Source of the DNA: Candidatus Nezhaarchaeales archaeon
GTDB lineage: Archaea; Thermoproteota; Methanomethylicia; Nezhaarchaeales; WYZ-LMO8
NCBI GenBank assembly: GCA_038887515.1
Contig: JAWAKK010000002.1
Span: forward strand, 128,001-192,000
Direction of reading: 5' to 3'
Length of the DNA stretch: 64,000 nucleotides
Part shown: one piece after another, positions 6,788-12,077 of the stretch
Position numbering within the stretch: position 1 is the stretch's first letter
How the letters are laid out: the number at the start of each line of letters is the position of its first letter
Notes under the pieces: model-generated
What the model saw: the letters and a program-made list of their open reading frames with translations, nothing else
Told to the model about the DNA's origin: nothing
The model's database searches: none
Made by a program: the position numbers and the translations under genes

Positions 6788-8596
6788 TTATTGTTCCTCT
6801 TTTTCCTCTACTTCCTCCTTTTCCGGGATGTAATAGTATTCTCCTATGCTCTTCTGCTTCCTATGAAGATAGGAATCAGGCTTATTTATTCTAACCCTTC
6901 CGCTATGTAAATCTCTTCTAAAGGTGACGTCGATCTCCTGCAGGAAGAGGTTAAAGCCACTCCTCAAATCCATGGGGCTTGACGCAATGCCGTAAACTCC
7001 CGGTTTACCGCTGAAAACCATTATCGAATCAGCAACGGCATCCATAACTACAAGATCGTGCTCAACGACGAAAGCTGCTGCCTTCCTTTCCTCTACGATC
7101 CTTCGAATGAGCTTTGCCATGATGAGGCGTTGCTCTACATCTAAGTAGGCGGAAGGTTCGTCAAGTAAATATATGTTAGCCTCCTTGGCTAAGGTACACG
7201 CTATGCTGACTCGTTGAAGTTCGCCACCGCTTAAAGAGGAAAGCCTACGATCAAAAAGTTGTTCAAGCATAAATGGTTGGCATATCTCGCTCTTAAACCA
7301 AGGCGTGAACATTATGTCCCCCAAGTTCCTGTGCATATATTCGTAGACCATCTCCTCGCTCTCAAGAGTTATGTATTGTGGTTTATAACTGAACTTTATG
7401 TTAATATTCTGTTGGTTCGACAATAGATCCACCAGGGCCTTTACAAAGGTCGTCTTACCGATTCCGTTAGGACCTAATATGCCAATGACTTCCCCTTCAT
7501 GTATAACTCCTTGGTTTGCGCTTAGCTCGAAGCTCTCCCCTACCTTGACCTTGAATGAGGGCCACGAAAACAAATCGGTGACGGCGTAGGATTCTCTTGG
7601 TCTAGGTCTCAACTTAAACCTCACGGGCTCGCTCCTGAACTTTATGTTCTCGCTAGGTATGTAACCGTCGAGATATACGTTTATGCCCACTCGAACACCG
7701 TATGGTTGCGATGTAATTCCATAAGCTCCTGGCTTGCCGTACATTATGCAGACCCTGTCTGAAACGTAGTCCAGAATTGCAAGGTCGTGTTCAGCTATTA
7801 TGACCGCTTTACCTTCTTGAGACAGGGATCTTATGACTCTAGATGCTTTGAGCCTCTGCATAACGTCTAGGTAACTAGCCGGTTCGTCGAATATGTAAAC
7901 ATCAGCATCGCGGCAACACGCAGCAACTATAGCTAGTCTCTGAAGCTCCCCACCGCTTAGTGCTGCTACTTCCCTATCAGCTACATCAATTAGGTCGAGG
8001 TCTGTAGCTAAGTCCTTCCACATCCCCCTTTCATCAACTTTATTTAGTAACTCTTTAATGGTACCTTTGACGTATTTGGGTATTAAGTCCACGTACTGTA
8101 CTTTGTGTACAACGCGAAGCTTCCCATGATACAAGTCCCGAAAATAGGGTTGCAGTTCTGTTCCAGCAAAAAAGCGTATCACATCGTCCTTTGTTGGTTG
8201 ATGTTCTATAGCACCGAGGTTCGGTGTAAGTTCCCCTGACAAAATGCGAAGTATTGTAGTTTTTCCCGTCCCGTTGGGTCCTATCAAACCTATAACTTGA
8301 CGTCTTCTAGGGGAAGGAAGTCTATAAAGCCTAAACCCATTAACGCCATACTGATGAACGCATTCGCTTTCCAGTTCTTCGGGTAAATTAACTATTGTTA
8401 TGGCCGAGAAAGGGCACTTTTTAACGCAAATACCGCAGCCAACACATAGGTTCTCTCTTATTACTGGTCTATAGATGTCTTCGTCAAACTCGATGGCCAT
8501 AACTTTATTCTTCACCAATGGACAGAAACGATAGCATTCTCTACTACACTCTTTTGGCTTGCATAGATCTTTATCTATTACAGCTATTCGGGGCAT
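6788..8596 (-). CDS. rli1: Ribosome recycling ATPase ABCE1/RLI
   Basis: N-terminal Fe-S cysteines (CKPKEC...CVGCGICVKKCP) and two ABC domains with LSGGELQR; start placed at MPRIAV behind AGGAG. Confidence 0.97.
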   Translation of the reverse strand: MPRIAVIDKDLCKPKECSRECYRFCPLVKNKVMAIEFDEDIYRPVIRENLCVGCGICVKKCPFSAITIVNLPEELESECVHQYGVNGFRLYRLPSPRRRQVIGLIGPNGTGKTTILRILSGELTPNLGAIEHQPTKDDVIRFFAGTELQPYFRDLYHGKLRVVHKVQYVDLIPKYVKGTIKELLNKVDERGMWKDLATDLDLIDVADREVAALSGGELQRLAIVAACCRDADVYIFDEPASYLDVMQRLKASRVIRSLSQEGKAVIIAEHDLAILDYVSDRVCIMYGKPGAYGITSQPYGVRVGINVYLDGYIPSENIKFRSEPVRFKLRPRPRESYAVTDLFSWPSFKVKVGESFELSANQGVIHEGEVIGILGPNGIGKTTFVKALVDLLSNQQNINIKFSYKPQYITLESEEMVYEYMHRNLGDIMFTPWFKSEICQPFMLEQLFDRRLSSLSGGELQRVSIACTLAKEANIYLLDEPSAYLDVEQRLIMAKLIRRIVEERKAAAFVVEHDLVVMDAVADSIMVFSGKPGVYGIASSPMDLRSGFNLFLQEIDVTFRRDLHSGRVRINKPDSYLHRKQKSIGEYYYIPEKEEVEEKEEQ

Positions 8597-8935
8597 AATC
8601 ATATCTCCTGCCTGACGATATATCGAACGCTGATAACTATGCATGTCGAGCCTATACTTCGATCCTAACTACTTCACCTTTTGCTCGTCCTTATTTCATT
8701 ATCGGTCGCATTTTCTCAATAAACTTAGTCCTATAGTGACTTAACGGCCGGGTTATAAAGACCTTCATTCTTCCATGAATGTCCAACTGTTGTCTAATAT
8801 AGTATTATCTAATAGCAGCTGTGTGGATAATGTAAATTCGCGAAGATTATGAAGATTGCCAAGAAAACAGAAATATGTTTTGTTAAAAATTTTAGGTTAA
8901 AAATAGTTGTGTTGTATTGAGTTGAATTAATACGT

Positions 8936-9010
8936 CTACCACTCCTCTTCCCATTCCTCTTCCTCTTCCCATTCCTCTTCCTCTTCCCATTCTTCCCATT
9001 CTTCTTCCAT
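8936..9010 (-). CDS. 24-aa Glu/Trp micropeptide MEEEWEEWEEEEEWEEEEEWEEEW
   Basis: ATG to TAG ORF using only GAA, GAG and TGG codons; SD-like AGGGGG 7 nt upstream; TTTAAATA box at 9053-9060; T-runs downstream. Confidence 0.7.
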   Translation of the reverse strand: MEEEWEEWEEEEEWEEEEEWEEEW

Positions 9011-9052
9011 CTTTCTGCCCCCTGAAACGGTGTCTTAGAAGATTTATGGCTT

Positions 9053-9068
9053 TATTTAAAGTTACCGA
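9053..9068 (-). promoter_or_regulatory. TATA box with upstream BRE-position sequence for the E/W micropeptide
   Basis: Minus strand reads TCGGTAAC-TTTAAATA about 43 nt before the ATG. Confidence 0.55.
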
Positions 9069-9134
9069 TAGGTTTGTGGAGAAGCTTTTAAGAAAAGCCC
9101 TCCTTTAAACATGCATGCTAAAAGGTGTTTAGCG

Positions 9135-9656
9135 TTGAAATTTAACTTACTGGTCTCCACGTACAGGAGCAGAGAAGATGAGTGTATAAGCGAGCTATGG
9201 TATTTATTCCGAGAGCTAGGCGACGATCAGGTAGAGATACGTAGAGCACCGGTTCCCGGACTACTGTTCGTAAGAACCAATCTTGATCCTTTTGAGGCAT
9301 CTAAAAAGATTGGAGAGATAGCCAGAGAGAGACCTTGGGACGTAAGGTATACCTTGAAGCTTACTCCAATCGATGCCGTTACTAGCGACGATCTGGATGA
9401 AATTAAGAGTGTAGCAGTTGCACTAGCAAATAAGAAGATACGTGAAGATGAAACTTTTAGGATAACGGTGAACAAAAGGCTTTCCAGCATTAGTAGTAGG
9501 AAGCTTATAGAGGAAGTAGCCAAGGAGATTAATAGGAAAGTTAGCTTAAAGAAACCCGATAAGATTCTACAAATAGAAATAGTCGGGAAAGACGTAGGAA
9601 TAGTCGTGTTAAAGCCAGAAGACGTAGTTTCAATAGTTAAGATAACTACCTCTTAA
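9135..9656 (+). CDS. THUMP-domain RNA-binding protein
   Basis: FNLLVST...E..CISE, ETFRITVNKR, KVSLKKPDKILQIEIVG; TTG start after AGGTG. Confidence 0.9.
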   Translation: MKFNLLVSTYRSREDECISELWYLFRELGDDQVEIRRAPVPGLLFVRTNLDPFEASKKIGEIARERPWDVRYTLKLTPIDAVTSDDLDEIKSVAVALANKKIREDETFRITVNKRLSSISSRKLIEEVAKEINRKVSLKKPDKILQIEIVGKDVGIVVLKPEDVVSIVKITTS

Positions 9657-10242
9657 TTTTTAAAAGGGCCATCCTCGTTAAAACGCTCTTCAACTCGGCG
9701 CTTAAAACGGACGATTTGTAGCTAGTAGTAGATAGCTCATCGCTCTTAACGTTGAGCATCTTTAATAGAGAACCTGATTCTGGTGCCTTCAAAACATTAA
9801 GTGGCAACAAAACTTCAACGGGCAGGGAAGATAAAGCCGATAGCGATTCTTCTAAGACGTCCTTGTTAGGAGATATGATGTAAAGGCAAAACTCTCTAGC
9901 CCTATCATCTAACCCAGCAATTTTAAGAGCATTAGTTATCTGATCTTCACATGTAAGGCGTACCAAGAACTCTATGTTAAACTTGTTACTTATGTTATCT
10001 CTAGTGACAAATGCTTTTAGAGTATGATAAAAGACGTGCAAGACGTGGACCGGCGATATTGCAAGTCCGGGGCGTGTTACCGCCCATAAAACCTTGAAAG
10101 GTTTGAAAACCTTCTCCAATGATTGGATTATTTCCTGCGATGGAAGTTCACTTCTTAACTTTATGTATATGATGCCTAAGCCTGTTTGATCCTTGTTGCT
10201 TATAAGGAGAGATAGCAATTCCCTTGCGAAATCAATGTTCAT
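9646..10242 (-). CDS. cgi121: KEOPS subunit Cgi121-like
   Basis: HVLHVFYHTLKAF...NISNKFNIEFLVRL...QITNALKIAG, C-terminal LTRMALL. Confidence 0.8.
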   Translation of the reverse strand: MNIDFARELLSLLISNKDQTGLGIIYIKLRSELPSQEIIQSLEKVFKPFKVLWAVTRPGLAISPVHVLHVFYHTLKAFVTRDNISNKFNIEFLVRLTCEDQITNALKIAGLDDRAREFCLYIISPNKDVLEESLSALSSLPVEVLLPLNVLKAPESGSLLKMLNVKSDELSTTSYKSSVLSAELKSVLTRMALLKIKR

Positions 10243-10531
10243 GATTGGATCCACCATGAACTGATGGTATTAACGATATCTCTTTAATATCGCCTTGAGA
10301 AGTATTGACACCGCCGATGACGTTTACGTCAACGCCGTCAACCATAACTATTATATCGCTCCTTATGTTTCCTCCACTAGGTTCAAAGACCCTCTTAAGG
10401 AGAGACTCGTTGTCTTTGCATGCCAAGCGTATTATGTCTATTATCTTGATACCTTGAGGTACATCCACTTCAATAGAGCTAGACTTCGCTAAACTTCGAA
10501 GCACCGCTAAGAAGTTCACTTTAACTTTCAT
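10232..10531 (-). CDS. Ubiquitin-like MoaD/Urm1/SAMP family protein
   Basis: MKVKVNFLAVLR beta-grasp start, IIVMVDGVDV, ISLIPSVHGG followed by a SNHEH tail. Confidence 0.88.
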   Translation of the reverse strand: MKVKVNFLAVLRSLAKSSSIEVDVPQGIKIIDIIRLACKDNESLLKRVFEPSGGNIRSDIIVMVDGVDVNVIGGVNTSQGDIKEISLIPSVHGGSNHEH

Positions 10532-10653: not shown

Positions 10654-11871
10654 ATGTTATTGGTGGCTGCAATATCCTATGGTTATGGTAATAAGGAAAG
10701 CCCAGTACTTCTTAAAAGATCCCTACTTAGCATTATAGAGAAGAAGTTAAAGAGAGAGAAACTCAAAGTTGCTAAGAATGATAGCCATTCTAAACGTAAA
10801 CCCATAAGCTGTGGTCTTACGGTACATCCCGGTTCCGGTTGCCCCCTTCAATGTAGTTACTGCTATATTTACGACATGGGATTTAACACGTATGCAACGC
10901 CATACTCTCTTGAAGGGCTTCAGCTCGTGGCAGCCCTTCTTTATAACAAGTATTTTTATCCTACTAGATGGGGTACTTATCTTGCATTCGGTAGCGTAAC
11001 AGAACCCTTCCTTCCAAATATAATGCCTAAAACGTTGGAGTATTTGAAAGCCGTGTCAGAGTATTTAGGCAATCCTTGTCAAGTTTCCACTAAGATGGTT
11101 ATCCACGACGAAGTGATAGAAGAGCTCGTTGGCATAAAGGATTTAAAAATATCATTTTTAATCACGGTAACGAGTCTCAGACAATTCCTCCATCTAGAGG
11201 AGAAAGCTCCTCACCCCTTCAAACGATTGGAGAACTTGAAGAGGTTGAGGAAAAAAGGGTTTAAACCGTTCGTGTTCTTGAGACCCCTCTTGCCTGGATT
11301 AAGCGATGAAGAGCTAAGTGAGATAGTAGACCAAGCACGAGCTTCAGGTGCTTATGGCATTGTTATCGGCAATTTAAGGTTATCACAAAACATAATTAAA
11401 AGGCTTTTAGGCAAAGGTATAAACCTTTCAAAGCTCTTTACAACAGATTTTAGATCTCTAAAAAAGGGATTTATCGATATTAGAGTTAATGGTAGGGTTT
11501 TATCATGCATTAGAGAAAGAGCTTTAGAGAGGGGACTCATCTTCGTGAAGAGGGCGTGCTGTGCCAATACGCTTTCGCAGTACCTCCAAGGACACAGTGA
11601 TGTGGTGTGCCCCTCCTTATGTTTCCTAAACGAAAATGTATGCGAACCAACATGTCCTTCTCAATGTAGAAGAAAGGCTCTAGGAGAACCTAATCACATA
11701 GATATGTATGAGACCATAGGAGAAGTTCTCGGATCAAATAAGTACGAAGTAGACGTGGAGAATCACGTTATTTCCATAAAGCTTAAGGAAAGCTTGAGAG
11801 ATGAAAAGTCAGCATTATTCTCATTGATGTACCTCTTACGGAGGAAAATTAGATTTATAAAATCCACTTAG
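10654..11871 (+). CDS. Radical SAM protein (spore photoproduct lyase-like, function unknown)
   Basis: CPLQCSYC motif, GSVTEPF, STK, LRPLLPG; Cys-rich C-terminus. Confidence 0.85.
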   Translation: MLLVAAISYGYGNKESPVLLKRSLLSIIEKKLKREKLKVAKNDSHSKRKPISCGLTVHPGSGCPLQCSYCYIYDMGFNTYATPYSLEGLQLVAALLYNKYFYPTRWGTYLAFGSVTEPFLPNIMPKTLEYLKAVSEYLGNPCQVSTKMVIHDEVIEELVGIKDLKISFLITVTSLRQFLHLEEKAPHPFKRLENLKRLRKKGFKPFVFLRPLLPGLSDEELSEIVDQARASGAYGIVIGNLRLSQNIIKRLLGKGINLSKLFTTDFRSLKKGFIDIRVNGRVLSCIRERALERGLIFVKRACCANTLSQYLQGHSDVVCPSLCFLNENVCEPTCPSQCRRKALGEPNHIDMYETIGEVLGSNKYEVDVENHVISIKLKESLRDEKSALFSLMYLLRRKIRFIKST

Positions 11872-12077
11872 GTTTGTACTTGCTCAGCTACTTTATAGCG
11901 TCTAGCAAGTCTAGTTAAGTACCCGCTAACTCTATTTAAGAAGTGTTTAGCTCTAACAGTTGAAACTTCTAGGACCAACTTCTTGTTTTGTGCGTAATCT
12001 AAGCTCACCTTGTCGTAGTACTGTTGAAATATCTGGATGGCTAACCTTTTCACGGTCAGCGGTCTTATCTTCCCCAT
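11868..12077 (-). CDS. rps17e: 30S ribosomal protein eS17
   Basis: MGKIRP..VKRLA...NKKLV...NRVSGYLTR. Confidence 0.95.
   Translation of the reverse strand: MGKIRPLTVKRLAIQIFQQYYDKVSLDYAQNKKLVLEVSTVRAKHFLNRVSGYLTRLARRYKVAEQVQT

Follow-up and report, generated by a model that had tools for sequence, protein, structure and literature searches.

A glutamate-tryptophan micro-gene beside ABCE1 in Thermoproteota, a candidate small partner of the translation machinery

The stretch of DNA analysed here, 64,000 nucleotides (nt) of contig JAWAKK010000002.1 from a Candidatus Nezhaarchaeales archaeon (hereafter the window), carries at 8936..9010 on the minus strand an open reading frame (ORF) of 24 codons whose product, MEEEWEEWEEEEEWEEEEEWEEEW, is made, after its initiator methionine, of nothing but glutamate (E) and tryptophan (W). 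The pattern of divergence among its orthologs marks this EW ORF as a coding gene maintained by strong purifying selection and not a chance repeat. Micro-ORFs of the same type, judged by their sequences, constitute an undescribed family of D/E-W micro-proteins of 18-59 residues, found across the Thermoproteota and placed, in the majority of the loci collected, directly upstream of the gene for the ribosome-recycling ATPase ABCE1. A conserved micro-gene in that position points to a small partner of the translation machinery, and the best explanation that we can offer, with a probability of about 0.5, is that the peptide would act in trans, in translation or in a function related to ABCE1.

The EW ORF and its orthologs

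The EW ORF runs from an ATG through 23 codons, all of them GAA, GAG or TGG, to a TAG, exactly as it was listed in the initial annotation of the window. The peptide (18 Glu, 5 Trp and 1 Met; 3404 Da; net charge of about -18 at pH 7) contains 75% Glu and 21% Trp, to be compared with 7.1% and 1.07%, respectively, in the ORFs of at least 200 amino acids (aa) of the same genome; its Trp are spaced every 3-6 residues, and Glu at residues 2-4 forms an acidic run at the N-terminus. The DNA also forms a tandem repeat (unit of 18 nt, 2.8 copies, 100% match), and the window contains the motif GARGARTGGGARGARGAR three times, each time within the EW ORF, against 0 times in each of 100 shuffles. The EW ORF is the sole one of its kind in its own genome (1.29 Mb, 94% complete). 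A 35-aa ORF (MGRMGRGRGMGRGRG..., 8892..8999, minus strand) overlaps it in another frame, which is not kept in relatives, and is read as a by-product of the repeat.

Putative signals for expression are found on both sides of the EW ORF. A Shine-Dalgarno (SD)-like AGGGGG (9018..9023, minus strand) stands 7 nt 5' of the ATG and would pair with the 3' end of the 16S rRNA. Further upstream, a promoter-like element composed of GGTAAC and TTTAAATA (9053..9066, minus strand) includes a TATA box at 9060..9053, 43-50 nt before the ATG, a position which predicts the transcription start and implies a leader of about 20 nt. Past the stop codon, at a distance of 33-51 nt, two T5 runs (8903..8899 and 8889..8885, minus strand) resemble archaeal terminators.

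When 40 relatives were searched at the DNA level, each of the 9 genomes of the same family proved to contain the region, with 78-88% identity, the match beginning about 80 nt before the EW ATG and stopping at the stop codon. All the related loci fetched (19/19) hold an E/W ORF in the same frame, the last codon of which specifies Trp and is followed by the stop. The comparison within the family comprises 10 orthologs and the 23 codons after the ATG: the variable sites number 0/23 at the first, 0/23 at the second (0/46 for the two together) and 16/23 at the third codon position, both GAA and GAG are present in 16 of the 17 Glu columns, and the pairwise differences, which reach 12 of the 23 codons, are synonymous without exception. 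The sole indel is one Glu codon. Furthermore, GGGGG is found at an unchanged distance from the ATG in 10/10 orthologs, the TATA box 'ctttaaataaa' is nearly invariant, and conservation ends at the EW stop codon, after which the T-run follows. The initial annotation had proposed a stand-alone protein-coding gene in which GAA/GAG variation keeps the frame, flanked by an SD motif, a TATA-type box and T-runs. The relatives bear out this description in all its parts, and the frame-breaking indels and the loss of the ATG or of the SD motif that were looked for in them did not appear.

A purine-rich repeat acting as an RNA or DNA element, and open in one frame by chance, could account for the 18-nt tandem repeat and for its richness in SD-like GAGG words. 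Such a non-coding purine tract is rejected because A/G changes would then also occur at the first and second codon positions. The strict GAR/TGG periodicity, the synonymous-only divergence, the conserved ATG and the stop placed right after the last TGG argue in the same direction, and the region belongs to no Rfam family (best match 18 bits, for a gathering score of 88); we consider this explanation hardly credible. Two alternative frames, one rich in R, G and M (MGRMGRGRG...) and the other in K, R, N and G (KKNGK...), were examined and discarded, neither having a conserved start, end or sequence. The EW ORF is very probably a real, translated gene. Three metatranscriptome runs of the same study have 0 reads over 7900..9400 and are no test of its expression.

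Spread, terminal tryptophan and linkage to ABCE1

The pattern (E)2-x-(E)3-W-stop, sought in one genome of each prokaryote species, gave at least 120 loci. Among the matches listed, 73 are ATG-started micro-ORFs of the EW type, a few more with other start codons having been dropped by the classifier, and the remainder are mostly ordinary bacterial proteins with acidic ends. The micro-ORF records listed are labelled Desulfurococcales, Pyrodictiaceae, Ignisphaera, Thermofilales, Thermoproteales, Bathyarchaeia, Methanomethylicota, Nezhaarchaeales and 'Nitrososphaerota'; Pyrodictium, Hyperthermus, Ignisphaera and Thermogladius are among the genus labels of carriers, and a family with complete genomes of 1.8-2.2 Mb has the gene as well. 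Of 401 genomes sampled evenly over the window's phylum, 221 match EEEWEEE, against 7 for the reversed pattern used as a control; EEEWEEE comes near saturation in some families (9/9, 4/4, 15/16, 16/17 and 22/23) and is scarce in others (4/32, 12/56, 0/12 and 2/15). These figures undercount the family, since 12 of 30 pattern-negative genomes still carry a D/E-W micro-ORF, in some cases with a TTG or GTG start, at most 700 nt upstream of ABCE1 (5/5, 4/5, 2/3 and 1/1 by family).

The 120 unique members collected have a median length of 30.5 aa (range 18-59). Their in-frame codons (n=3771) include 1483 GAA, 1170 GAG and 569 TGG, all other all-purine codons amounting to 77 of the 3771. Their stop codons are TAA in 54, TAG in 40 and TGA in 26, an SD-like motif is present at -18..-4 in 84/120, and TATA-like words peak at -40 and -50 from the ATG. 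No curated family covers them: the window's EW peptide has 0 Pfam and 0 NCBIfam matches, and the EW-only peptides submitted to Pfam (9 tested, one spurious match with E = 6.8) and to NCBIfam (8 tested) fall into no family. The ESM Atlas includes one 59-aa relative, letter-for-letter identical and unnamed, and the nearest clusters, which score 0.81, are uninformative. A protein search started from a 52-aa relative gave no scored match, probably an effect of composition filters. In viral contigs, the 17 pattern matches include 0 EW micro-ORFs. No literature on the family was found by a search that left subscription journals, arCOG tables and supplements outside its range. Its shortness and its low complexity explain why the EW gene has escaped annotation.

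Sixty loci were fetched from the EEEWEEE list, a sample chosen because this pattern requires neither a terminal Trp nor ABCE1 and circularity is thereby avoided. The last residue of the 60 ORFs is Trp in 52, Phe in 3, Met in 2 and Glu in 3. The N-termini differ among members (MF, ML, MVF, MFRF, MKRF, MSRKKTPPK, MSEDF), the body consists of Glu/Asp runs interrupted by W or WW and at times by F, P, L or G, and in larger proteins the EW tail is invariably C-terminal. In one clade, EDWGE, the motif of LysW, is found inside the EW peptide. EEEEEEW is also the ending of several small, unrelated phage proteins (about 78-85 aa) encoded on IMG/VR contigs (L226, L228, L230, L237, L238 and L240), and these cases suggest that an acidic tail with a terminal Trp is a recurrent docking motif.

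In the window, ABCE1, an ATP-binding cassette (ABC) ATPase with an N-terminal iron-sulfur (Fe-S) domain, lies at 6788..8602 on the minus strand, about 335 nt 3' of the EW stop. Among the 60 loci, ABCE1 is directly downstream on the same strand in 46, with a gap of 30-170 nt (615 nt in one case), 13 have no ABCE1 within about 2.4 kb, and one is incomplete at its edge. The first set, the 73 loci among the matches listed, divides into 44 with ABCE1 downstream, 5 in which the EW ORF is downstream of ABCE1, 18 unlinked and 6 incomplete; across both sets, the gaps between EW and ABCE1 are as short as 10-60 nt. Throughout the window's family and order the gene order is THUMP (divergent), EW, ABCE1 and fructose-bisphosphate (FBP) aldolase/phosphatase, so that the proposed synteny with ABCE1 and THUMP is confirmed. 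Ancestrally, the EW gene is placed immediately 5' of ABCE1. The other recurrent neighbours are Cgi121-like, Urm1-like and eS17 genes; neither chromatin genes, nor genes for single-stranded DNA-binding proteins (SSB), nor an ATP-grasp gene were seen among them, and it is ABCE1 and translation, more than chromatin proteins, that the genomic context suggests.

The EW gene can be separated from ABCE1. Five genomes belonging to three families have no EW ORF within 1.5 kb of ABCE1 and carry one elsewhere, and one genome possesses two copies, only one of which is linked to ABCE1. Some unlinked EW loci face a convergent aEF2-like, ArgH-like or Cgi121-like gene, so that there is nothing for the EW ORF to lead; others lie between hydrogenase-maturation-like genes (all these names being read from sequence), and the remaining unlinked loci inspected show no common partner. 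Where the two genes are adjacent, their transcription also appears to be separate. In nearly every lineage inspected, a T5-7 run is found about 15-40 nt past the EW stop, and in many lineages a TATA-like box then precedes ABCE1, as in ...gattttttaagctataaatattttt..., about 25 nt before a GTG start. These T-runs and TATA-like boxes suggest two tandem, separate units; the EW terminator looks as if it abutted the ABCE1 promoter, with read-through from one unit into the other being possible.

Candidate functions of the EW peptide

The explanation that we favour combines an independently transcribed gene and a peptide acting in trans. The EW micro-gene, with its own TATA box, its leader of about 20 nt including the SD motif, its 24 codons and its oligo-T terminator, would give rise to a 3.4-kDa peptide with a charge of about -18, probably disordered, in which Glu runs alternate with Trp and the C-terminal Trp is free. 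This peptide would act on the translation and ribosome-recycling machinery: the polyanionic chain would be drawn to a basic surface that binds RNA or factors, and the Trp side chains, chiefly those of the terminal W-E3/4-W-COO-, would plug a hydrophobic pocket. In the terminal W-E3-W, the two Trp are one helical turn apart. Such a binding would tune the recruitment of ABCE1, its ATPase activity or its release from the 30S subunit.

The closest likeness is that of the tail of the stalk protein aP1. According to the report on this tail (PMC6125642), the C-terminal 18-mer of aP1 binds, with a Kd of 3.9 uM, to a cavity on nucleotide-binding domain 1 (NBD1) of aABCE1, the contacts being made by L103, L106 and F107, and it is required for the ribosome-dependent ATPase activity of ABCE1. 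Like the EW peptide, the aP1 tail is an acidic stretch with a hydrophobic or aromatic free C-terminus; a short peptide suffices for its binding, and its partner is ABCE1, the product of the gene next door to EW. On the other hand, the two have no sequence homology, the EW peptide has no P1 N-terminal domain (PF00428; no Pfam match), its tip is W-E3-W instead of L..LF(G), and it would be a free molecule whereas aP1 is tethered to the ribosome. The single aP1 of the window's genome (C2:366320-366592) ends in EEVSEETIAEGLSSLFG. The aP0 of that genome (L225:502-1374; C2:365321-366193) has 290 aa and is devoid of the acidic hydrophobic C-terminal tail that aP1 has; in 30 genomes of the phylum, the aP0 frames fall into a short class of 283-317 aa and a long class of 333-358 aa. 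The possibility that EW substitutes for a missing aP0 tail was considered and rejected, the length of the aP0 frame (283-358 aa) not tracking the presence of EW in the 30 genomes.

A second likeness is offered by eIF3j/Hcr1, a eukaryotic accessory factor of ABCE1, which is small and acidic and works with it in ribosome splitting. Its N-terminal segment lies near nucleotide-binding site I, in contact with the ABCE1 patch to which the aP1 peptide binds, and splitting is stimulated by eIF3j (PMC7780240). It differs from the EW peptide in being about 10 times larger, in its dimeric helical bundle and in its basic C-terminal tail lying in the mRNA channel, and the two are not homologous. The acidic N-terminal motif of eIF3j includes a conserved Trp; to our knowledge, Archaea are without eIF3. 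By analogy with these two ligands, the EW peptide may be a mimic of the ligand of the NBD1 patch, that is, a stalk-tail or eIF3j-like modulator of ABCE1 or of ribosomal complexes, and we tentatively retain this as the single most likely mechanism. A more ambitious and doubtful version would make EW the founding member of a polyanionic micro-protein family that serves as a dedicated accessory factor of archaeal ABCE1: a free peptide imitating the stalk tail or the acidic eIF3j segment, which docks its terminal Trp on NBD1 or at the 30S interface and gates splitting or the release of ABCE1. Since an all-acidic ORF is prone to ribosome destabilisation, the synthesis of this factor could also report recycling capacity.

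Several points weigh against such a partnership. The hydrophobic pattern of aP1 (L..LF, helical) is unlike W-E3-W. In bacteria and eukaryotes, D/E runs at the N-terminus cause translation to abort and are avoided in proteomes (PMC9718836, PMC12673854); the cell may have difficulty in making the EW peptide, and the ORF may act via its translation instead. In pattern-negative genomes, the 700 nt upstream of ABCE1 contain no D/E-W micro-ORF in families f10 (0/5), f21 (0/4) and f24 (0/3), nor in four single genomes of other families, nor in one genome each of f20 and f27; ABCE1 being present without a nearby EW ORF in several families, it does not need it. The gene order of the region is conserved in general (Urm1-like, Cgi121-like, eS17, FBP aldolase/phosphatase), and the adjacency to ABCE1 may thus be in part an inherited order. 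Finally, the homology of low-complexity members would rest on composition, length, terminal Trp and synteny, and is unprovable by alignment statistics.

An action in cis is the main rival to the trans-acting peptide. The EW ORF would be a leader of ABCE1 whose acidic N-terminus destabilises or stalls the ribosome (intrinsic ribosome destabilisation, IRD), or which provokes attenuation at the T-run, and the peptide would be a by-product; in both cases, the expression of ABCE1 would report the state of translation, of recycling or of the Trp/Glu-tRNA supply. The trp leader and MgtL are examples of regulatory leader peptides. As in such leaders and IRD sensors, the EW ORF is a very short upstream ORF with a rare Trp codon (5 of 24 codons), acidic residues in its N-terminal region, which are consecutive as in IRD, and a T-run after it, between the EW ORF and ABCE1. 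That it immediately precedes ABCE1, in the same orientation, in 46/60 and 44/73 loci, the latter among the matches listed, speaks for a leader. The peptide is an extreme N-terminal D/E run of the translation-aborting type described in PMC9718836 and PMC12673854, and in E. coli such sequences are reportedly relieved by ABC-F ATPases with twin NBDs (PMC11162784, PMC11282234). Unlike leaders, however, EW is retained where it is unlinked (13/60; 18/73 among the matches listed), several of the unlinked loci inspected having a convergent downstream neighbour, and in 5 genomes it is absent at the ABCE1 locus yet present elsewhere. It is downstream of ABCE1 in 5 loci, and one family has it as the C-terminal tail of a larger protein, of 85-90 aa. 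Conservation includes the whole length and the terminal Trp, beyond an N-terminal arrest segment, TATA-like boxes precede ABCE1 after the T-run, and all three stop codons are used. An action in trans is favoured over an action in cis because of the unlinked copies, of the fusion to a zinc ribbon (4/4 genomes) and of the T-runs together with the TATA-like boxes of ABCE1. The Trp/Glu-sensing leader which the initial annotation mentioned as an alternative is weakened by the persistence of EW away from ABCE1 beside convergent genes; it keeps its place among the rivals, and we hold a leader function to be unlikely.

A peptide acting in trans could also do so without any special tie to ABCE1, as a general polyanionic mimic or chaperone which imitates single-stranded nucleic acid and binds basic proteins such as ribosomal proteins, Alba, histones or polymerases. 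The initial annotation had put forward such candidate roles, along with that of an activator-like peptide. The tails of SSB and of T7 gp2.5 are acidic with an aromatic tip. They obey, as do DNA mimics, the same logic as EW, in which a polyanion, a terminal aromatic residue and a free carboxylate dock into basic pockets. The charge of about -18 and the Trp every 3-6 residues fit this chemistry, the EW gene survives translocation to unrelated neighbourhoods, and acidic tails with an aromatic end recur in the unrelated small phage proteins. The SSB and T7 gp2.5 tails, however, belong to folded DNA-binding proteins, whereas the EW tail is the whole protein and is found in a translation context. 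No signal is stronger or more widespread than that of the ABCE1 neighbourhood, and the recurrent neighbours include no chromatin or SSB genes; a general mimic or chaperone appears improbable.

The LysW and ArgW carrier proteins raise another possibility, that of a carrier tail or ligase substrate on which an ATP-grasp ligase of the LysX/RimK type would build, or to which it would add. Their acidic C-terminal tail contains a Trp (EDWGE), and the last Glu of this motif carries the LysW substrate (PMC10433800). EW tails are fused to LysW-type zinc ribbons in relatives: one archaeal family has them behind such ribbons (PF21344, 27.1-30 bits), as do Chloroflexota (TIGR01206, 52.6 bits), in addition to the clade with EDWGE inside the peptide. 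The genome of the window has five RimK-family genes over the cut-off, at 115 bits at least, and a weaker sixth match. In contrast, the window's peptide has no Cys, whereas the carriers possess a zinc-ribbon domain with 3-4 Cys (PF21344, TIGR01206, NF041070); it lies outside a lysine/arginine cluster and ends in ...WEEEW, not in the attachment Glu (PMC10433800). The sequence GSWGR, which reads EDWGE, is found only in the two ligases at the true LysW locus and is lacking in the other three RimK-type genes, none of which is near the EW ORF; this leaves EW with no such ligase partner, and no ATP-grasp gene recurs beside archaeal EW genes. The true LysW of this genome is encoded on another contig and ends in EDWGE. 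We regard a LysW-type role as quite remote. An orphan LysX-like ligase that would read the EW tail was sought among three extra RimK-type genes and rejected, these genes being without GSWGR.

The fusions deserve a description in their own right. Proteins of 85-90 aa composed of a LysW-type ribbon and a long E/W tail ending in Trp are encoded at L013:1499-1756 and L050:6123-6392 (both minus strand) and at L217-L220; in 4/4 genomes of one family, this fusion is the only match to a LysW-type ribbon over the cut-off, and a canonical LysW is seemingly lacking. Bacterial LysW homologs (TIGR01206, 52.6 bits) that end in ...EEEEEEEW and not in EDWGE occur at L041:2412-2612, L071 and L088 (Anaerolineae-labelled), L070 and L125. 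At three of these bacterial loci, there follow a 438-aa ORF resembling KamA-type aminomutases and two ATP-grasp-like ORFs, as read from sequence.

The last rival considers the EW peptide as the precursor of a cofactor derived from Trp or Glu, or of a ribosomally synthesised and post-translationally modified peptide (RiPP), which a nearby radical S-adenosylmethionine (SAM) enzyme would process in the manner of PqqA. PqqA is similar in size to the EW peptide, and a radical SAM gene lies 1.6 kb away in the window (10654..11871). A homolog of this gene is near EW in only 3 of the 120 loci among the matches listed, each of which bears the label Nezhaarchaeales or Nitrososphaerota, while the 60 phylum loci have 0 such cases, and no other maturation genes recur, which makes this precursor function very improbable.

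Neighbouring genes and significance

The genes that surround the EW ORF can be specified further. The ABCE1 ORF (Pfam matches ABC_tran, Fer4_RLI and Fer4) was listed as 6788..8644, and its start is likely at 8602 or 8596: the orthologs align only from residue 15-19 of the listed ORF, and AGGAGAT precedes ATGATTATG. In one family (L296 and L297; genomes G070 and G056), the ABCE1 match starts at query residue 56 within a frame of 924-925 aa, which suggests an N-terminal fusion or a replaced Fe-S domain. The divergent neighbour is a THUMP-domain gene (9111..9656, plus strand; PF02926, 38.7 bits). A conserved box, GAAGCTTTTAAG (9081..9092, plus strand), stands at TATA distance from its ATG (9111) and is kept in the family alignment; it is probably the TATA box of the THUMP gene, the transcript of which would be leaderless or have a short leader.

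At 9646..10531 and 11868..12077 of the window (both minus strand) are found a Cgi121-like ORF (PF08617, 19.5 bits, under the cut-off), a Urm1-like ORF ending in ...HGGSNHEH (PF09138, 26.2 bits) and an eS17-like ORF; this neighbourhood recurs near the EW gene in many lineages. Some genera of the window's family, and all five of the f5 genomes checked, have a second small gene, of about 93-103 aa, between EW and ABCE1 (L009:1689-1979, plus strand; L007; L274-L279; L072:1826-2104), which is absent in the window. Its product combines an N-terminal zinc ribbon of the RPB9/RpoM type (PF02150; L072, 46 bits; L009, 22.9 bits) with a C-terminal tail that is acidic.

In conclusion, ABCE1 is essential, and universal in archaea and eukaryotes; beyond the stalk, aPelota and aRF1, we know of no dedicated archaeal partner of this ATPase, and our searches turned up no further one. 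The EW peptide is a cheap and concrete candidate, since it can be synthesised and published assays exist for ABCE1 binding, ATPase activity and splitting. It also illustrates that gene finders and HMM (hidden Markov model) tools miss deeply conserved genes of this kind. With its 75% Glu and 21% Trp, EW lies at an extreme of protein sequence space and contradicts the reported avoidance of N-terminal acidic runs, and thereby it puts to the test whether intrinsic destabilisation occurs in archaeal ribosomes and by what means cells would deal with it. If the accessory-factor version were true, one 75-nt gene would be a cofactor and a sensor at once, and the family would represent a phylum-wide, genetically encoded device of this type.

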